Virus record (IMG/VR): IMGVR_UViG_2690316346_000013
Reading direction: 5' to 3' (one strand)
DNA length: 9,588 bases
From: a virus
Taxonomy: Duplodnaviria; Heunggongvirae; Uroviricota; Caudoviricetes
Shown here: piece by piece, positions 46-8,966 of the stretch
How positions within the stretch are numbered: position 1 is the stretch's first letter
Layout: every line of letters starts with the position of its first letter
The notes under the pieces: model-generated
Database searches by the model: none
What the model was told of the DNA's origin: nothing
The model's input: only the letters and a program-made list of their open reading frames with translations
Program-made: the position numbers and the translations under genes

Positions 46-172
46 GGGTATAAGGGGTTATGGCCACCGGACTACCAAACGGCTGCCAGCCCTCTTTCAG
101 TTTATGTGTCAGCTTTTCCGCAAGATCTGACGGCGGCGCCGCCCTGACAACATCATAGTGTTTAAATGCCAT
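1..172 (-). CDS. Small hypothetical protein (MAFKHYDVVRAAPPSDLAEKLTHKLKEGWQPFGSPV...), partial copy running off the window; its 3' end reads into IS600 sequence
   Basis: Same sequence as 5937..6110. The ATG at 172..170 has a GGTGGAAAG purine tract upstream. The native reading frame is interrupted at the IS boundary (45/46). Confidence 0.3.
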   Translation of the reverse strand, partial: MAFKHYDVVRAAPPSDLAEKLTHKLKEGWQPFGSPVAITPYTLRCTGNSGHYHLFFF

Positions 173-432
173 GGTTCTTTCCACCATCTGAAAAATAATT
201 CTTTAAAATACCTGACATGTAATACAGAAAAAACACAAAACCATACCTTAAATAAAAACCTGATTATCAAGCAGATATGCATGGATAAACTACAAGACGA
301 GATATAAACCACCCTGCATTTAAATAAACAATAAACAACATCAGAAAAATAATTCTGCTCTATGGTTTACATTCAAAAATATCATTTATACTTTTCAGAA
401 CATCACCAGCAAGGCATAAACAAGGAAACTAA

Positions 433-768
433 ATGAAGTGGATTGTGATTGATACAGTTATCCAGCCATCATGCGGAATATCTTTTTCAGTCATATGGAG
501 TAAAATAAAATTAATAATCTGGTATCAATCGGATGCTTTCTTACCTCCTGAAAGTATATTTACACTGACTCACACAGGCATCATGCTCAATAACAAAGTG
601 CTACCTGTAACCATTTACAACGTAGTACCATTCAATAAAACATTCTGGAATTCAATCAAAAATAGCCAGGAATGCCCTACAAATACAGATAACGTATTGA
701 ATGAATGCTTTAATAACCGTTGCACTCTGCAAATATGTCCTTATGGACTAAAACAACAAAGTCCATAA
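433..768 (+). CDS. Hypothetical 111-aa protein, Cys-containing C-terminal region, no family recognised
   Basis: ORF-track ORF with a good RBS (AAGGAA about 6 nt before the ATG). It follows a long AT-rich intergenic region and is followed by a perfect 8-bp GC hairpin. Codon usage is AT-rich, with 6 AUA codons by my count. Duplicated at 6371..6706. Confidence 0.5.
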
Positions 769-800
769 GGAGTTTACTCACATCTGACAAAATCAATATA

Positions 801-1025
801 AACAGCCCCTCCGGAGAGGGGCTGGAGAGTGGCGCTATGTGCCATTGCATGGTGCCGGGTGCCTCCCGGTGAATTCAGTACCAGCACCTGAATCCGCGAT
901 TATCCCATATACCTACTCGCTGATTGCCCCTCCGCACAGGGGGATTCACCATGCCAGTTTCTTTTAACAAACTCCCCGCAAACCAGACAACAGTCAACCG
1001 CCTGAATTGTGAAGTATTTAAAAAT
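801..1025. repeat. Hairpin-dense ~225-bp element, copy A (also 3497..3718 and 6739..6963)
   Basis: Four consecutive GC-rich stem-loops: 804..823 (agcccctc-cgga-gaggggct, perfect 8-bp stem), 855..869, 873..893 and 927..942, in otherwise AT-rich DNA. The copy at 3497..3718 differs by a handful of substitutions and a 1-nt deletion in the first stem, and has different flanks on both sides. Confidence 0.6.
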
Positions 1026-1048
1026 TTCTCCCGCTAACTGATACCCGG

Positions 1049-1135
1049 CTAACAGTCTGGCGTTTTCTTTTTCAGCAACGGGAAAGCAACAACCACCACA
1101 CCCGCCACCAGCACACCGTCAGCCAGCACTGACAT
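1049..1135 (-). CDS. Candidate small hydrophobic peptide (28 aa, MSVLADGVLVAGVVVVAFPLLKKKTPDC)
   Basis: Found by manual translation; it is below the ORF-track size cutoff. One predicted transmembrane-like helix followed by KKK. The SD is weak. An in-frame GTG upstream would give a 44-aa product. Duplicated at 6987..7073. Confidence 0.25.
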   Translation of the reverse strand: MSVLADGVLVAGVVVVAFPLLKKKTPDC

Positions 1136-1215
1136 TATCCGGCTGCTGCAATGCCATTCACAAAAACAGTAAGCAATCACTTTTTACCGTAACAGGTGAT
1201 AATCCAGATATGTAT

Positions 1216-1569
1216 CTACCCCAGATGAGTAATCCGAAGTTCATCCATACCACAGGTCCTGGCTATTCTGTTGTACTCCTGAACAAGAGCAAATAATTCT
1301 GAATTAGCAACCATGAACTCATCGCAAACCCTCTGTATAGCATCACTATTCAGAATAATAACGTCTCTTCCCGAAAGACGATCAGGAGTACAGAACAAAA
1401 CTGTCAAACGGCTGAAGGCCTTTGCTCGTGCTGCATTGACTATATCAATACGCTGCCTAAGGATGAAACACCCCGACGCCTCATCAATATTCACTCTACC
1501 CACACCATATGAATGATAAATATTTAATGCTGAAAAAACCATTAGACCGTATAACAAACACTCAATCAA
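1216..1569 (-). CDS. Hypothetical 117-aa protein, TTG start (internal ATG at codon 10 possible)
   Basis: ORF-track ORF whose translation looks protein-like (…[33 protein letters not shown]…). It is rich in rare Arg/Ile codons (AGA, AGG, AUA). Duplicated at 7154..7507. Start codon is uncertain. Confidence 0.4.
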
Positions 1570-1772
1570 TACTTAACAGAACTTTTATTAGTGCCAACTA
1601 TAAAGTGCTAGAATATTTTATCAATAATGGATTGGTTGATGTAAACAAAAAATTTCAAAAAGCAAATAGTGGGGACACTATGCTTGACAATGCAATGAAA
1701 AGCAAAGATTCAAAAATGATTGATTTTTTATTAAAAAATGGAGCAATATTAGGCAAACGATTTGAGATATGA
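1509..1772 (+). CDS. Ankyrin-repeat ORF fragment (87 aa), probably truncated or chimeric
   Basis: The translation contains ankyrin-like repeats: ...[22 protein letters not shown]... and [28 protein letters not shown] (G-x-T-x-L-x-x-A...LL-x-x-GA pattern). Only the first 81 nt lie inside the duplicated block; the repeats are encoded in unique DNA at 1590..1772. The start overlaps the 117-aa ORF on the opposite strand. Confidence 0.4.
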
Positions 1773-2109
1773 CCTAAAAGCTCGGCCAAATAATAATGTC
1801 GTCGATTATCGAAGTCATCATGAGTGATTCTGTCCCCACAGTGCAGCATCAGCATGACAGTGAATTGTCTGGCGTGGTCCATTTAATGAGATGGAGATGG
1901 TCCCTCTTTCCTAAATAGCTGTGCCTAATACCGCTACACTTTTGCCAGCCCATGTTTGCCTCCGGGGAATGGGCTGACGGTTCCTTCAAAATCCATTGCA
2001 CGCAGTTATGTCGGAGCGGGAACTTGACTCCCGTCTTTACGGGAGTGAGGTAGCCTGAGTTTAACGGACACTCCTTCCTGAAATAGAATGGCATCAGAAG
2101 GAGCCAATA

Positions 2110-2412
2110 ATGAGCAGAAAAACCCAACGTTACTCTACGGAGTTTAAAGCCGAAGCCGTCAAAACGGTTCCTGAAAATCAGCTTTCGATCAGTGAAGGCG
2201 CTTCCCGATTATCTCTTCCTGAAGGCACTTTAGGACAATGGGTTACCGCCGCAAGAAAAGGGCTCAATACACCAGGCTCCCGCACAGTGGCTGAGCTGGA
2301 ATCTGAAGTTATGCAACTGCGTAAGGCTTTAAATGAAGCACGACTTGAGCGAGATATATTAAAAAAAGCAACAGCGTATTTTGCACAGGAGTCGCTGAAA
2401 AATACGCGTTAA
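2110..2412 (+). CDS. IS600 transposase OrfA (HTH DNA-binding part), 100 aa
   Basis: RBS GAAGGAG before the ATG. N-terminal HTH followed by a leucine-zipper-like region, typical of IS3-family OrfA. Ends just after the A7G frameshift motif. Confidence 0.85.
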   Translation: MSRKTQRYSTEFKAEAVKTVPENQLSISEGASRLSLPEGTLGQWVTAARKGLNTPGSRTVAELESEVMQLRKALNEARLERDILKKATAYFAQESLKNTR

Positions 2413-2447
2413 TCGAACAATGGCGACAACAATTTCCCATTGAAGCG

Positions 2448-3266
2448 ATGTGTCAGGTATTTGGTGTATCCAGGAGCGGTTATTACAACTGGGTACAGCA
2501 TGAACCCTCAGACAGAAAACAAAGTGATGAGCGGCTAAAACTGGAGATTAAGGTGGCACATATCCGCACTCGCGAAACATATGGAACCCGGCGGCTCCAG
2601 ACGGAGCTGGCAGAGAATGGCATCATCGTTGGTCGTGACCGACTGGCACGTCTTCGTAAGGAGCTAAGGCTACGCTGTAAGCAGAAACGCAAGTTCAGAG
2701 CGACTACGAACTCGAACCACAATCTGCCAGTTGCGCCAAATCTGCTGAACCAGACGTTCGCTCCTACAGCACCAAATCAGGTCTGGGTGGCGGACCTGAC
2801 GTATGTTGCCACACAGGAGGGATGGTTGTACCTCGCTGGCATCAAAGATGTTTATACGTGCGAAATTGTCGGCTACGCCATGGGAGAGCGCATGACAAAA
2901 GAGCTGACAGGTAAAGCCCTGTTTATGGCGCTCAGGAGCCAGCGCCCACCTGCCGGGCTAATCCACCACTCTGATCGAGGTTCACAGTACTGCGCATACG
3001 ATTACCGGGTCATACAGGAGCAGTCTGGTCTGAAAACATCAATGTCGCGTAAAGGTAACTGTTACGACAACGCTCCGATGGAAAGCTTCTGGGGAACGCT
3101 GAAAAATGAGAGCCTGAGCCACTATCGTTTTAATAACCGGGATGAAGCCATCTCAGTAATACGGGAATACATTGAGATTTTCTACAATCGTCAGCGTCGT
3201 CACTCTCGTCTGGGGAATATCTCCCCGGCAGCCTTCAGGGAAAAATATCATCAGATGGCTGCTTAA
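2448..3266 (+). CDS. IS600 transposase OrfB (DDE catalytic domain), 272 aa as annotated; normally expressed as an OrfAB fusion by -1 frameshifting
   Basis: The orfB frame is open upstream to the A7G site at 2361..2368. The protein looks like an rve-type integrase core (…WVADLTYV… HHSDRGSQY… CYDNAPMESFWGTLK…). Confidence 0.85.
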   Translation: MCQVFGVSRSGYYNWVQHEPSDRKQSDERLKLEIKVAHIRTRETYGTRRLQTELAENGIIVGRDRLARLRKELRLRCKQKRKFRATTNSNHNLPVAPNLLNQTFAPTAPNQVWVADLTYVATQEGWLYLAGIKDVYTCEIVGYAMGERMTKELTGKALFMALRSQRPPAGLIHHSDRGSQYCAYDYRVIQEQSGLKTSMSRKGNCYDNAPMESFWGTLKNESLSHYRFNNRDEAISVIREYIEIFYNRQRRHSRLGNISPAAFREKYHQMAA

Positions 3267-3496
3267 AAAAAGAACAAATGGTAGTGTCCGCTATTGCCAG
3301 TACACCTCAGGATAGCGGTCATGTGATGCCGGTTTCCCGGTAACTCAGCACCGGTATCTGAGTCAACGTTTTCTCTACTGGGTCATTTCCGATACGCCCT
3401 GCCTGCTGACAGGCTTTCATCACATCTGAAAATATAGCACCCTGACTGATACTGTAGTACCTAAGGTTCCAGAAACTGTGATGTATCCGGCACAGA

Positions 3497-3718
3497 AAAG
3501 CCCCTCCGGAGAGGGCTGGAGAGTGGCGCTATGTGCCATTGCATGATGCCGGGTGCCTCCCGGTGAATTCAGTACCAGCACCTGAATCCGCGATTATCCC
3601 ATATACCTACTCGCTGATTGCCCCTCCGCACAGGGGGATTCACCATGCCAGTTTCTTTTAACAAACTCCCCGCAAAACAGACAACTGTCAACCGTCTGAA
3701 TTGTGAGACATTTAAAAA
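3497..3718. repeat. Hairpin-dense ~222-bp element, copy C (diverged copy of 801..1025)
   Basis: Alignable with 801..1025 across its whole length. Differences include gagaggggct to gagagggct, catggtg to catgatg, aaaccagacaacagtc to aaaacagacaactgtc, and gaagta to gagaca. It abuts the tRNA operon terminator. Confidence 0.6.
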
Positions 3719-3739: not shown

Positions 3740-3753
3740 AGGGAAAATAAGTG

Positions 3754-3830
3754 TGGCGCGTTGTACTGGATTCGAACCAGTGACCGATTGCTTAGAAGGC
3801 AATTGCTCTGTCCGGCTGAGCTAACAACGC
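3754..3830 (-). tRNA. tRNA-Arg (anticodon UCU), phage-type
   Basis: Manual cloverleaf, 77 nt: acceptor GCGTTGT/ACAACGC, D-arm GCTC...GAGC, anticodon arm ATTGC-CTTCTAA-GCAAT, T-arm ACTGG-TTCGAAT-CCAGT, then G-CCA. Confidence 0.8.
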
Positions 3831-3843
3831 ATGATGCAGATAA

Positions 3844-3920
3844 TGGACCGCCATCGGGGACTTGAACCCCGCGCAGCCAGCTTCGAAGGCTGGCGCTCTT
3901 TCCTGATGAGCTAATGGCGG
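3844..3920 (-). tRNA. tRNA-Arg (anticodon UCG), phage-type
   Basis: Manual cloverleaf, 77 nt: acceptor CCGCCAT/ATGGCGG (unusual C1-G72), D-arm GCTC...GAGC, anticodon arm CCAGC-CTTCGAA-GCTGG, T-arm CGGGG-TTCAAGT-CCCCG, then T-CCA. Confidence 0.7.
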
Positions 3921-3927
3921 TATGTGA

Positions 3928-4003
3928 TGGTGGCCCTTGCTGGATTTGAACCAGCGACCTGGCGATTATGAGTCGCTCGCTCTCACCACTGAGCTAAAGG
4001 GCC
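3928..4003 (-). tRNA. tRNA-Ile2-like (anticodon CAU, ileX/ileZ type, probably lysidine-modified to read AUA); tRNA-Met not excluded
   Basis: 76 nt. Strongly resembles E. coli ileX as I recall it (GGCCC.TTAGCTCAGTGGT.AGAGC..GCGACTCATAATCGC..GGTCGCTGGTTCAA.TCCAGCA.GGGCCACCA). Anticodon loop is CTCATAA. Confidence 0.8.
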
Positions 4004-4043
4004 GGGAGCCGCATAATAACGACGCGTAATTAATTCTTCAATA

Positions 4044-4844
4044 TCATCCGTTCTGGCTGACTAAATCCTGTACTTCCCGAACCGTCTGCTCAAAACGTTC
4101 AGTCTCCAGCTCAACGCCAATTGCACGACGCCCGAGCGCCAGTGCCGCTTTCACTGTCGAACCCAACCCCATGAAAAAATCTGCAATCAGGTCACCCGGA
4201 CGACTGCTAGCGCTGATTATCTGCTGCAGCATTTCTGCCGGTTTTTCGCACGGATGTTTCCCGGGATAGAACTGCACCGGTTTATGCGTCCACACATCGG
4301 TATACGGCACCTGCACCGTCACGCCAAAATACCGCCGCAGATGTTTATATTCACTCAGCAGCTCCGCATACTGCCGGTTCAGTGAGGTATACGTATCCAC
4401 CAGCTGGTGGTGGAGCTTTTCCAGTTCACCACGCCGATGCTTCTCTTCTGCCACCCGGGCAAACAGCGCCTGTAATTTCAGATAATCGCTTTCATTCGGC
4501 AACTGCCACTGACCGGCACTGAACCAGTGCGACACCATGTTTTTCTTTCCTGTGGCATCTGCAATCTGTTTTGCCGTTATCCCCAGGGCAGCTCGCGCAT
4601 CACGAAAGTAAGAAATCAGCGGGGCCATCACATGCTGTTTCAGTGCACTGCCCTTCGCCGCATACCCGGCATCTTTCGGACGATACGGCCCCTGATAATG
4701 TTCCGCGAACAGAATGCGCTCTGTGGCGGGGAAATACGCCCGCAGGCTTTCCTTGTTGCATCCGTTCCAGCGTCCGGACGGCTTCGCCCAGATAATATGG
4801 TTCAGCACACTGAAGCGTTCACGCATCATGATTTCGATATCAGA
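4044..4844 (-). pseudogene. 5'-truncated copy of the DNA methyltransferase (N-terminal ~87 codons including the DPPY motif replaced by IS600)
   Basis: Matches codons ~88..352 of the intact gene at 7908..8966. Homology stops at 4844, one base before IS600-derived sequence. No start codon or catalytic motif IV remains. Confidence 0.75.
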
Positions 4845-4845
4845 A

Positions 4846-5983
4846 TGAAAATCAACTTTCGATCAGTGAAGGCGCTTCCCGATTATCTCTTCCTGAAGGC
4901 ACTTTAGGACAATGGGTTACCGCCGCCAGAAAAGGGCTCGGTACTCCTGGTTCCCGCACGGTGGCTGAACTGGAATCTGAAATTCTGCAACTGCGTAAGG
5001 CGTTAAATGAAGCTCGCCTTGAGCGAGATATATTAAAAAAAGCAACAGCGTATTTTGCACAGGAGTCGCTGAAAAATACGCGTTAATCGAACAATGGCGA
5101 CAACAATTTCCCATTGAAGCGATGTGTCAGGTATTTGGTGTATCCAGGAGCGGTTATTACAACTGGGTACAGCATGAACCCTCAGACAGAAAACAAAGTG
5201 ATGAGCGGCTAAAACTGGAGATTAAGGTGGCACATATCCGCACTCGCGAAACATATGGAACCCGGCGGCTCCAGACGGAGCTGGCAGAGAATGGCATCAT
5301 CGTTGGTCGTGACCGACTGGCACGTCTTCGTAAGGAGCTAAGGCTACGCTGTAAGCAGAAACGCAAGTTCAGAGCGACTACGAACTCGAACCACAATCTG
5401 CCAGTTGCGCCAAATCTGCTGAACCAGACGTTCGCTCCTACAGCACCAAATCAGGTCTGGGTGGCGGACCTGACGTATGTTGCCACACAGGAGGGATGGT
5501 TGTACCTCGCTGGCATCAAAGATGTTTATACGTGCGAAATTGTCGGCTACGCCATGGGAGAGCGCATGACAAAAGAGCTGACAGGTAAAGCCCTGTTTAT
5601 GGCGCTCAGGAGCCAGCGCCCACCTGCCGGGCTAATCCACCACTCTGATCGAGGTTCACAGTACTGCGCATACGATTACCGGGTCATACAGGAGCAGTCT
5701 GGTCTGAAAACATCAATGTCGCGTAAAGGTAACTGTTACGACAACGCTCCGATGGAAAGCTTCTGGGGAACGCTGAAAAATGAGAGCCTGAGCCACTATC
5801 GTTTTAATAACCGGGATGAAGCCATCTCAGTAATACGGGAATACATTGAGATTTTCTACAATCGTCAGCGTCGTCACTCTCGTCTGGGGAATATCTCCCC
5901 GGCAGCCTTCAGGGAAAAATATCATCAGATGGCTGCTTAAAAAAAGAACAAATGGTAGTGTCCGCTATTGCCAGTACACCTCA
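4846..5983 (+). mobile_element. 5'-truncated IS600 (equivalent to positions ~127..1264; left inverted repeat and orfA start missing)
   Basis: From ~5030 to the end it is identical to the full copy. The first ~180 bp (4846..~5030) differ at about 14 positions from the full copy and encode the OrfA variant ...GLGTPGSRTVAELESEILQ..., i.e. a mosaic of two IS600 isoforms. Confidence 0.8.
5122..5940 (+). CDS. IS600 transposase OrfB (second copy), 272 aa; the upstream orfA is only a start-less fragment (4846..5086)
   Basis: Protein identical to the orfB product at 2448..3266. Confidence 0.8.
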   Translation: MCQVFGVSRSGYYNWVQHEPSDRKQSDERLKLEIKVAHIRTRETYGTRRLQTELAENGIIVGRDRLARLRKELRLRCKQKRKFRATTNSNHNLPVAPNLLNQTFAPTAPNQVWVADLTYVATQEGWLYLAGIKDVYTCEIVGYAMGERMTKELTGKALFMALRSQRPPAGLIHHSDRGSQYCAYDYRVIQEQSGLKTSMSRKGNCYDNAPMESFWGTLKNESLSHYRFNNRDEAISVIREYIEIFYNRQRRHSRLGNISPAAFREKYHQMAA

Positions 5984-6110
5984 GGGTATAAGGGGTTATG
6001 GCCACCGGACTACCAAACGGCTGCCAGCCCTCTTTCAGTTTATGTGTCAGCTTTTCCGCAAGATCTGACGGCGGCGCCGCCCTGACAACATCATAGTGTT
6101 TAAATGCCAT
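5937..6110 (-). CDS. Small hypothetical protein (MAFKHYDVVRAAPPSDLAEKLTHKLKEGWQPFGSPVAITPYTL...), 3' end fused to IS600 end sequence
   Basis: ATG at 6110..6108 with an upstream GGTGGAAAG tract; an alternative upstream ATG is at 6125. Native sequence ends at the IS600 boundary (5983/5984); the last ~14 codons are IS-derived. Confidence 0.3.
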   Translation of the reverse strand: MAFKHYDVVRAAPPSDLAEKLTHKLKEGWQPFGSPVAITPYTLRCTGNSGHYHLFFF

Positions 6111-6370
6111 GGTTCTTTCCACCATCTGAAAAATAATTCTTTAAAATACCTGACATGTAATACAGAAAAAACACAAAACCATACCTTAAATAAAAACCTG
6201 ATTATCAAGCAGATATGCATGGATAAACTACAAGACGAGATATAAACCACCCTGCATTTAAATAAACAATAAACAACATCAGAAAAATAATTCTGCTCTA
6301 TGGTTTACATTCAAAAATATCATTTATACTTTTCAGAACATCACCAGCAAGGCATAAACAAGGAAACTAA

Positions 6371-6706
6371 ATGAAGTGGATTGTGATTGATACAGTTATC
6401 CAGCCATCATGCGGAATATCTTTTTCAGTCATATGGAGTAAAATAAAATTAATAATCTGGTATCAATCGGATGCTTTCTTACCTCCTGAAAGTATATTTA
6501 CACTGACTCACACAGGCATCATGCTCAATAACAAAGTGCTACCTGTAACCATTTACAACGTAGTACCATTCAATAAAACATTCTGGAATTCAATCAAAAA
6601 TAGCCAGGAATGCCCTACAAATACAGATAACGTATTGAATGAATGCTTTAATAACCGTTGCACTCTGCAAATATGTCCTTATGGACTAAAACAACAAAGT
6701 CCATAA
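6371..6706 (+). CDS. Hypothetical 111-aa protein (duplicate of 433..768)
   Basis: Sequence identical to 433..768, with the same RBS and the same downstream hairpin. Confidence 0.5.
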
Positions 6707-6738
6707 GGAGTTTACTCACATCTGACAAAATCAATATA

Positions 6739-6963
6739 AACAGCCCCTCCGGAGAGGGGCTGGAGAGTGGCGCTATGTGCCATTGCATGGTGCCGGGTGC
6801 CTCCCGGTGAATTCAGTACCAGCACCTGAATCCGCGATTATCCCATATACCTACTCGCTGATTGCCCCTCCGCACAGGGGGATTCACCATGCCAGTTTCT
6901 TTTAACAAACTCCCCGCAAACCAGACAACAGTCAACCGCCTGAATTGTGAAGTATTTAAAAAT
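6739..6963. repeat. Hairpin-dense ~225-bp element, copy A' (identical to 801..1025)
   Basis: Lies inside the 1,589-bp duplication. Confidence 0.6.
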
Positions 6964-6986
6964 TTCTCCCGCTAACTGATACCCGG

Positions 6987-7073
6987 CTAACAGTCTGGCG
7001 TTTTCTTTTTCAGCAACGGGAAAGCAACAACCACCACACCCGCCACCAGCACACCGTCAGCCAGCACTGACAT
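6987..7073 (-). CDS. Candidate small hydrophobic peptide (duplicate of 1049..1135)
   Basis: Identical sequence. Confidence 0.25.
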   Translation of the reverse strand: MSVLADGVLVAGVVVVAFPLLKKKTPDC

Positions 7074-7153
7074 TATCCGGCTGCTGCAATGCCATTCACA
7101 AAAACAGTAAGCAATCACTTTTTACCGTAACAGGTGATAATCCAGATATGTAT

Positions 7154-7507
7154 CTACCCCAGATGAGTAATCCGAAGTTCATCCATACCACAGGTCCTGG
7201 CTATTCTGTTGTACTCCTGAACAAGAGCAAATAATTCTGAATTAGCAACCATGAACTCATCGCAAACCCTCTGTATAGCATCACTATTCAGAATAATAAC
7301 GTCTCTTCCCGAAAGACGATCAGGAGTACAGAACAAAACTGTCAAACGGCTGAAGGCCTTTGCTCGTGCTGCATTGACTATATCAATACGCTGCCTAAGG
7401 ATGAAACACCCCGACGCCTCATCAATATTCACTCTACCCACACCATATGAATGATAAATATTTAATGCTGAAAAAACCATTAGACCGTATAACAAACACT
7501 CAATCAA
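7154..7507 (-). CDS. Hypothetical 117-aa protein (duplicate of 1216..1569)
   Basis: Identical sequence. Here it lies about 110 bp downstream of the tRNA cluster on the same strand, with no terminator between them. Confidence 0.4.
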   Translation of the reverse strand: MIECLLYGLMVFSALNIYHSYGVGRVNIDEASGCFILRQRIDIVNAARAKAFSRLTVLFCTPDRLSGRDVIILNSDAIQRVCDEFMVANSELFALVQEYNRIARTCGMDELRITHLG

Positions 7508-7617
7508 TACTTAACAGAACTTTTATTTTTGACAAACATAAAATATTTTCAACAATATCCTGAGCCAGGTATATTTCAGTATAAGGCTCTGCCGGAAGGA
7601 ATCTGGAAGAATGAATA

Positions 7618-7694
7618 TGGCGCGCTGTACTGGATTCGAACCAGTGACCGATTGCTTAGAAGGCAATTGCTCTGTCCGGCTGAGCTAACAACGC
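7618..7694 (-). tRNA. tRNA-Arg (anticodon UCU), second copy with U4.G69 in the acceptor stem
   Basis: Same as 3754..3830 except for c at 7625 (t at 3761), which turns the U4-A69 pair into a U.G wobble. Confidence 0.75.
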
Positions 7695-7707
7695 ATGATG
7701 CAGATAA

Positions 7708-7784
7708 TGGACCGCCATCGGGGACTTGAACCCCGCGCAGCCAGCTTCGAAGGCTGGCGCTCTTTCCTGATGAGCTAATGGCGG
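7708..7784 (-). tRNA. tRNA-Arg (anticodon UCG), second copy
   Basis: Identical to 3844..3920. Confidence 0.7.
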
Positions 7785-7791
7785 TATGTGA

Positions 7792-7867
7792 TGGTGGCCC
7801 TTGCTGGATTTGAACCAGCGACCTGGCGATTATGAGTCGCTCGCTCTCACCACTGAGCTAAAGGGCC
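7792..7867 (-). tRNA. tRNA-Ile2-like (anticodon CAU), second copy
   Basis: Identical to 3928..4003. Confidence 0.8.
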
Positions 7868-7907
7868 GGGAGCCGCATAATAACGACGCGTAATTAATTC
7901 TTCAATA

Positions 7908-8966
7908 TCATCCGTTCTGGCTGACTAAATCCTGTACTTCCCGAACCGTCTGCTCAAAACGTTCAGTCTCCAGCTCAACGCCAATTGCACGACGCCCGAG
8001 CGCCAGTGCCGCTTTCACTGTCGAACCCAACCCCATGAAAAAATCTGCAATCAGGTCACCCGGACGACTGCTAGCGCTGATTATCTGCTGCAGCATTTCT
8101 GCCGGTTTTTCGCACGGATGTTTCCCGGGATAGAACTGCACCGGTTTATGCGTCCACACATCGGTATACGGCACCTGCACCGTCACGCCAAAATACCGCC
8201 GCAGATGTTTATATTCACTCAGCAGCTCCGCATACTGCCGGTTCAGTGAGGTATACGTATCCACCAGCTGGTGGTGGAGCTTTTCCAGTTCACCACGCCG
8301 ATGCTTCTCTTCTGCCACCCGGGCAAACAGCGCCTGTAATTTCAGATAATCGCTTTCATTCGGCAACTGCCACTGACCGGCACTGAACCAGTGCGACACC
8401 ATGTTTTTCTTTCCTGTGGCATCTGCAATCTGTTTTGCCGTTATCCCCAGGGCAGCTCGCGCATCACGAAAGTAAGAAATCAGCGGGGCCATCACATGCT
8501 GTTTCAGTGCACTGCCCTTCGCCGCATACCCGGCATCTTTCGGACGATACGGCCCCTGATAATGTTCCGCGAACAGAATGCGCTCTGTGGCGGGGAAATA
8601 CGCCCGCAGGCTTTCCTTGTTGCATCCGTTCCAGCGTCCGGACGGCTTCGCCCAGATAATATGGTTCAGCACACTGAAGCGTTCACGCATCATGATTTCG
8701 ATATCAGATGCCAGGCGATGACCACAGAACAGGTAAAGACTTCCGGCAGGTTTCAGCACCCGCCAGAACTGCGCCAGACACTGGTCCAGCCACTTCAGGT
8801 AATCATCGTCGCCCTTCCACTGGTTATCCCAGCCCTCAGGCTTCACTTTAAAGTACGGCGGGTCCGTGACTATCAGGTCAACAGAATTTTCGGGTAACGA
8901 CCGGATAAATTCCAGGCAGTCGGCGTTGATTAACTCACAACTGGATATTTTTACAGTATTAAGCAT
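7908..8966 (-). CDS. Beta-class amino-DNA methyltransferase (N6-adenine or N4-cytosine), 352 aa, phage-type orphan
   Basis: Motif IV DPPY (…DLIVTDPPYF…) near the N-terminus and motif I FxGxG (…DFFMGLGSTV…) near the C-terminus, which is the beta-class order. No adjacent restriction endonuclease candidate. Sits immediately upstream of the tRNA triplet on the same strand. Confidence 0.85.
   Translation of the reverse strand: MLNTVKISSCELINADCLEFIRSLPENSVDLIVTDPPYFKVKPEGWDNQWKGDDDYLKWLDQCLAQFWRVLKPAGSLYLFCGHRLASDIEIMMRERFSVLNHIIWAKPSGRWNGCNKESLRAYFPATERILFAEHYQGPYRPKDAGYAAKGSALKQHVMAPLISYFRDARAALGITAKQIADATGKKNMVSHWFSAGQWQLPNESDYLKLQALFARVAEEKHRRGELEKLHHQLVDTYTSLNRQYAELLSEYKHLRRYFGVTVQVPYTDVWTHKPVQFYPGKHPCEKPAEMLQQIISASSRPGDLIADFFMGLGSTVKAALALGRRAIGVELETERFEQTVREVQDLVSQNG

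Follow-up and report, generated by a model that had tools for sequence, protein, structure and literature searches.

A 28-codon reading frame beside an STnc100 small RNA gene is probably a decayed remnant of the phage gene tciB

The stretch of viral DNA analysed here (the window, 9,588 nucleotides in full) contains on its minus strand a 28-codon open reading frame, 1049..1135, that starts with ATG at 1135-1133, ends with the stop codon TAG at 1051-1049 and encodes MSVLADGVLVAGVVVVAFPLLKKKTPDC. Upstream, the same frame continues without a stop as far as a GTG at 1180, which gives a 43-aa ORF (1049..1180); this is the form called by PGAP, and a TAA lies two codons ahead of its GTG. An identical copy of both forms lies on the minus strand at 6987..7073 (28 aa) and 6987..7118 (43 aa), because positions 1-1589 of the window are duplicated at 5939-7527 with 100% identity; the 28-aa ORF that an earlier note on this DNA had described is thus present, and present twice. 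Upstream of it is a 108-aa gene, here called geneX (1216..1542, minus strand, from an ATG at 1542; the mechanical ORF reaches to a TTG at 1569), and downstream is the gene for the small RNA STnc100, followed on the opposite strand by a 111-aa homologue of the RssB anti-adaptor iraM (433..768, plus strand, with a copy at 6371-6706), recognized from E. coli annotation. The surroundings of the second copy are similar, with STnc100 (6732-6921) after the ORF and geneX (7154..7480) before it, and a trio of tRNA genes (7618-7867) and the gene for a DNA methylase (7908..8966) lie upstream of this geneX. The order of the lambdoid prophage late region along the minus strand is Q, methylase and tRNA genes, then cargo, then STnc100, and then an esterase gene with lysis and holin genes. 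In lambdoid phages, the cargo slot holds stx, terB-tciB, geneX with a tciB relic, or nothing, depending on the phage. Given that the Q/methylase/tRNA genes and the STnc100/esterase/holin genes flank the ORF, it sits in this variable cargo slot. The neighbourhood of iraM in K-12 (ymgK, ymgL) was considered as an equivalent locus and rejected, as the neighbouring genes are unrelated.

The window as a whole is a mosaic of duplications bounded by IS elements. In addition to the duplication that carries the ORF, positions 3742-4844 closely resemble 7605-8708 and positions 2172-3311 correspond to 4846-5985, with repeat boundaries at 1-47, 3265-3311 and 5939-5985. A Met/Arg/Arg trio of tRNA genes is found twice (3754-4003 and 7618-7867), and the N6/N4 DNA methylase gene is found once in full (7908..8966) and once truncated (4044..4829). 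Upstream of the first geneX lies a fragment from the 3′ end of ospC4, a type III effector gene (ORF 1509..1772, plus strand, matching positions 235-292 of the Pfam family Shigella_OspC), adjoined by an element of the IS3 family (orfA 2110..2412, orfB 2448..3266), and this arrangement (1590-3320) is collinear with Shigella sonnei virulence plasmids at 96% identity. The presence of pINV-like DNA abutting a prophage remnant suggests a chromosome of Shigella or EIEC that IS elements have reshaped.

The element downstream of the ORF is a full-length STnc100 gene (794..983, minus strand; Rfam RF02076, model positions 1-206, 132.4 bits against a gathering threshold of 47). STnc100 is a known prophage small RNA with kinship to PasD (Zhu, Shabalina and Storz preprint), and the gene in the window is a full-length member of that family, complete with a terminator and in the position known for the family in lambdoid phages, downstream of stx or other cargo. 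Its intrinsic terminator, a hairpin (CAGCCCCTCTCCGGAGGGGCTG) with a T-rich tail at 803..824 on the minus strand, faces the 3′ end of the iraM homologue, which is convergent with the unit of STnc100 and truncated tciB; the hairpin at 803-824 is common to both. The earlier note had placed the 3′ end of the peptide frame 11–23 bp from a structured element that could supply an antisense or cis-regulatory RNA. The shorter of these distances is correct for a repeat, D1 (819-1037), which begins 11 nucleotides from the ORF stop, but STnc100 itself begins 66 nucleotides after that stop, and because it lies on the same strand without overlap it is not antisense to the ORF. No RNA family besides STnc100 was detected between 700 and 1300, even at E≤1, and no promoter-like site was found on the plus strand between 511 and 1769. 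The convergent micro-ORF to which the earlier note had pointed exists as a mechanical ORF call (924..1037, plus strand, with an internal ATG at 951); it is antisense to the 5′ region of STnc100 and to the spacer, and the plus-strand ORF that PGAP places at about 839-964, overlapping the micro-ORF, is annotated as a partial pseudogene. STnc100 is not part of the peptide gene, and three full-length STnc100 genes occur within the one 9.6-kb window, all on the minus strand (794-983, 3488-3677 and 6732-6921). The middle copy (3488..3677) is approximately 94–96% identical over a shared 220-nucleotide repeat, and a tRNA-Arg gene (3754-3830) lies just 77 nucleotides upstream of it; hence the middle cargo slot is empty, with neither geneX nor a remnant of tciB.

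The description of the peptide as a hydrophobic helix followed by a lysine cluster is accurate. The 19-residue Kyte-Doolittle mean reaches 2.47, from residue 3, and the hydrophobic helix is followed by a KKK tail. Among the ATG-initiated ORFs of 25–60 aa in the window, only the two copies of the 28-aa ORF have a value of 2.4 or more, and dinucleotide shuffles yield 0.12 ORFs of this length, start codon and hydropathy per window; since the two copies make up a single independent event, hydropathy by itself is no more than modestly unusual. It is homology (Pfam E=7e-16), not hydropathy, that settles what the ORF is. Specifically, PF13064 (DUF3927; gathering score 25 bits) matches the 28-aa form with 58.3 bits over HMM positions 26-53 of 53 and the 43-aa form with 95.6 bits (E=1.7e-27), and the peptide likewise matches PHROG 1470, “TciB-like” (E=7.8e-13). 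Its homologues are the TciB/DUF3927 proteins of P1, 434, N4-like and lambdoid phages, so that the suggested kinship to small phage membrane proteins is borne out, and the peptide agrees in every residue with the last 28 aa of a full-length homologue (P0014). The core motif MSVLADGVLV, the hydrophobic stretch, the proline and the basic tail are all present, as in the second helix of P1 TciB, of PF13064 and of PHROG 1470; like P1 TciB, the window ORF is also small, hydrophobic and part of the accessory cargo of a phage or prophage. The 28-aa ORF therefore corresponds to helix 2 and the basic tail of TciB, approximately residues 30-57 of the intact 57-aa protein. Nor is it missed by standard annotation, as had been supposed. 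PGAP labels this ORF in E. coli “DUF3927 family protein” at 43 aa (WP_000562553.1) and elsewhere calls the 28-aa form (WP_000114356.1), and the protein database contains many “DUF3927 family protein” entries from E. coli and Shigella. Judged by these matches, the window ORF belongs to a family that is already known and annotated, and offers no unannotated novelty.

It is informative to examine the ORF in light of the intact members of this family. Intact TciB homologues are 50–57 aa long, with the sequence MTVKMRLAVVALLLFLVVMV(VMV)DFSSRIMSVLADGVLVAGVVVVAFPLLKKKTPDC, and comprise two hydrophobic segments (the first being LLFLVV..) with a polar loop, DF[ST]S[RK]xM, between them; AlphaFold2 predicts the intact 57-aa TciB to be one continuous long helix (pLDDT 82.8) and not a hairpin, a model that speaks neither for nor against a hairpin of two transmembrane segments. 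The MSVLADG motif is invariant among 19 diverse family members, and the methionine encoded by ATG1135 is an internal, invariant residue of this motif in full-length TciB and not a conserved start. The dN/dS ratio of intact tciB (Nei-Gojobori, 19 diverse sequences that span Escherichia, Pantoea, Franconibacter, Enterobacter and others, with pairwise sums that are not phylogenetically independent) is 0.23 overall, 0.31 in helix 1, 0.09 in the loop and 0.22 in helix 2; hence purifying selection constrains the full-length gene, which is a genuine coding sequence. In 81 of 82 full-length loci, drawn from IMG/VR and GTDB species genomes and from Escherichia, Pantoea, Franconibacter, Enterobacter, Pseudescherichia and other genera, a TerB-domain gene ends at the start of tciB, with TerB identities ranging from 41% to 100%. 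The two genes overlap by 4 nucleotides (GTGA) in loci L003 and L011 and by 1 nucleotide in P1, whose tciA-tciB-tciC is the named prototype, tciA being the TerB-domain gene. In the intact module, then, a soluble TerB-domain TciA is encoded directly upstream of a two-segment TciB and, because the stop codon of TciA overlaps the start of tciB, TciB would be made by translational coupling. TerB has no hydrophobic segment (maximum Kyte-Doolittle value 1.01) and matches the solved structure of a soluble TerB, 2jxu, from which we infer that TciB may anchor TerB at the membrane, or be its partner there, in a module for lysogenic conversion or stress that is not essential. The name TciB is also used in the annotation of JL22 (“tciB: DUF3927 family protein”), and TciB is found in phage 434 and in N4-like podophages. 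The tci genes of P1 were named by homology only and are non-essential in a CRISPRi screen (PMC10695390). Our literature search returned only unrelated acronyms for TciB, one passing mention of DUF3927 and no occurrence of the peptide string, and it found no experiment on TciB. Phage 434 (L099, 1612-2844) is an exception to the pairing with TerB, in that its TciB comes after a putative membrane protein of 247 aa and is followed by another small membrane protein; in L015, TerB is likewise not detectable.

Comparison with the intact locus L003, in which the module order is Q, methylase, TerB, DUF3927, nanS-p esterase and holin, reveals how much of tciB is left in the window. The slot, the strand and the downstream context of STnc100 with esterase and lysis genes are shared; unlike in L003, the context downstream in the window is broken up by IS elements and by an iraM homologue, and geneX lies where TerB has been replaced or deleted. 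From CAGCAGCCGG (codons SSR..., beginning at codon S26) to beyond the stop codon the DNA is identical to that of L003, so that the 3′ 99 nucleotides of tciB, with its last 33 codons, are intact, as is the downstream spacer. Upstream of this point lie the decayed 5′ part of tciB, which encoded helix 1 (1136..1193, minus strand, from alignment to intact loci), and a relic of the last codons of TerB (tciA), including the ancestral Shine-Dalgarno (SD) sequence (1190..1208, minus strand, likewise from alignment). In the window, the SD sequence has changed from GGAG to GGAT (1205-1202), the start codon of tciB from GTG to GTT (1193-1191) and the stop codon of TerB from TGA to TTA. Furthermore, relative to the intact genes, a 15-nucleotide deletion has removed an internal ATG and a 5-nucleotide deletion has shifted the frame of tciB, and the ancestral frame runs into an in-frame TGA. 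The first 11 residues of the 43-aa ORF (MIAYCFCEWHC) are an out-of-frame reading of the former helix-1 DNA, and this ORF owes its existence solely to a fortuitous GTG, from which the shifted frame leads into the intact 3′ part. Neither the first hydrophobic segment nor the DF[ST]S[RK] loop start of intact TciB is therefore found in the window ORF, and HMM positions 26-53 alone are truly homologous. What the earlier note took for a stand-alone peptide gene is, rather, helix 2 of a two-segment protein of 50–57 aa whose 5′ half has decayed.

The coupling to TerB has been lost as well. In the window, as in all alleles of the 43-aa type, the gene upstream is geneX, which occupies the place of TerB and ends 8 nucleotides before the TerB relic. 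The product of geneX belongs to phrog_2873 (E=3.8e-70), has no Pfam domain, and has homologues that are all “hypothetical” proteins; the idea that geneX is a diverged TerB was rejected, as comparison shows no relation between the two. Every truncated tciB allele recovered has geneX upstream, and in L011 the order is geneX (1039-1317), then an intact TerB and then tciB. Together these arrangements indicate that TerB was deleted together with the 5′ end of tciB. Since homologues of geneX are found at 54–60% identity, the TerB-tciB module may have geneX as a genuine third member; PGAP mostly does not call this gene.

These observations point to an ORF that is a decayed remnant of tciB (DUF3927), hitch-hiking with STnc100 in a lambdoid cargo slot, and we put the probability of this reading at about 0.78. 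In such a history, TerB would have been lost by deletion in the lineage of the window, the ribosome-binding site, the start codon and the first-helix region of tciB would then have decayed, and the 3′ end of tciB would have survived because it travels with STnc100 just downstream. We infer that translation of the relic, if there is any, serves no function. The start signals in the window are in keeping with this. Pairing with the anti-SD sequence is predicted at -2.6 kcal/mol for ATG1135 (40th percentile of all ATG and GTG codons in the window) and at -3.0 kcal/mol for GTG1180 (35th percentile), compared with -6.4 kcal/mol for the intact tciB start of L003, so that neither candidate start beats the background and no functional start signal was found. 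In E. coli, translation can also begin without a leader or independently of an SD sequence. The junction that marks the truncated allele occurs in 1184 of 5426 complete E. coli genomes, among them those of 042 (NC_017626.1) and 97-3250 (NZ_CP027599.1), and also in the phage record mEp460_ev081, and all 16 truncated copies examined keep the 28 codons as an intact frame. Divergence among these copies is only about 0.5%, with just 3 nonsynonymous and 3 synonymous changes in the 28 codons, counts too small to speak for or against selection. An intact frame in every copy, together with the wide spread of the allele, leaves room for weak translation or a secondary role.

The alternatives differ in what they take to be maintained at the locus. 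A functional, stand-alone 28-aa membrane peptide with a single helix, either a toxin like those of type I systems or a phage effector, would account for the transmembrane-like hydropathy and basic tail and for an intact frame in so widespread an allele, and, lying on the same strand as the late operon of the phage, it would be transcribed upon induction. We nonetheless consider it very unlikely. The searches turned up neither an antisense RNA or promoter nor any RNA family of known antitoxins; the peptide matches no toxin family (in Pfam only DUF3927, and in NCBIfam nothing relevant); and PADLOC assigns TerB, TciB and geneX to no defence system. Likeness to the type I toxins (the class of Hok, Ldr, Ibs, TisB, ShoB and Zor) is confined to size and to the pattern of a hydrophobic helix with a charged tail, and unlike those toxins the window ORF lacks an antisense or overlapping small RNA, a promoter or leader of its own and a toxin-family match; nothing in these results speaks for a type I toxin. 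In addition to the poor SD match and the internal origin of its methionine, residues that do not vary among intact members have been replaced in abundant sister alleles, namely by L4P (the Shigella type, in at least 1000 contigs) and G7C (in 795 contigs, found for example in E. coli 97-3250, with no instance in an exact-pattern scan of viral contigs). The related idea that the helix-2-only fragment of TciB, which is common in prophages of E. coli and Shigella, is translated, from the late transcript or a local promoter, and acts as a stand-alone membrane micropeptide seems to us similarly improbable; were it true, the micropeptide might interfere with the TciA-TciB of co-resident or superinfecting phages or might perturb the membrane at lysis. 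That the 43-aa protein is real, as a variant of DUF3927 with a novel N-terminus rich in Cys and Trp, is extremely doubtful. Both the window and loci L001, L002, L008 and L100 have its ORF open, and its Pfam score is the higher of the two, but GTG1180 has become GTT in 8 of 14 sister loci, the Shigella-flexneri-type allele of L014 carries E8* along with L4P, and the out-of-frame origin of the 11 N-terminal residues, the weak SD match and the use of the 28-aa call by PGAP in other genomes likewise argue against it. The conservation of the frame that the earlier note had tied to a functional peptide is seen in the full-length gene, and among sister copies of the truncated allele the GTG start and invariant motif residues have been lost.

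It is also worth considering that the segment may be kept for a non-coding reason, as a leader or promoter of STnc100 or as a 3′ UTR processed to a small RNA, with the ORF being incidental. Consistent with this, the 3′ half of tciB, the 66-nucleotide spacer and the start of STnc100 are identical across loci that otherwise differ, and in uninduced EHEC many copies of STnc100 are transcribed, one of them having been confirmed by Northern blot (PMC5331693). A sigma-70-like match also lies within the segment (1163..1134; TTGTGA, an 18-nucleotide spacer, GATAAT), but its score of 9/12 is within chance expectation, with 6 such matches found against 4.5 expected, and it was rejected as a promoter of STnc100. 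Furthermore, the middle STnc100 of the window follows directly after tRNA genes with no tciB segment, and in Stx2 phages the small RNA comes after stx2B, 75 nucleotides downstream of stx2 (PMC12370729). The occurrence of STnc100 without the tciB segment shows that the segment is dispensable for carrying this RNA, and we regard a non-coding role as unlikely.

If the ORF is a decayed tciB remnant, as we favour, then the 28- and 43-aa ORFs annotated as “DUF3927 family protein” in about one-fifth of complete E. coli genomes, and in Shigella, are likely to be relics that call for a pseudogene flag. The more rewarding object of study is the intact pair, TerB (TciA) and TciB, a conserved and translationally coupled cargo module that occupies the same slot as the Shiga toxin genes, beside STnc100. 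Within it, the invariant MSVLADG, with an acidic residue inside a hydrophobic segment, presents a target for testing phage modules of the TerB type.

Two further features of these loci can be described here. The best sigma-70-like match in the region is not the one within the tciB segment but a site on the minus strand at 1597-1624 (TTGATA, a 16-nucleotide spacer, TATAGT; 10/12), which lies just upstream of the first copy of geneX, in DNA derived from ospC4 at the junction 1589/1590. If active, this site could promote transcription of geneX, of the tciB relic and of STnc100, in the first copy only. Finally, alleles of tciB vary in length in frame, by tandem units of VLVAG (15 nucleotides), VLADG and VMV (9 nucleotides) in P0005, P0044, P0094, P0097, P0098, P0102 and P0106, and the nature of these units suggests replication slippage in the GTG/GGT-rich DNA that encodes the helices.
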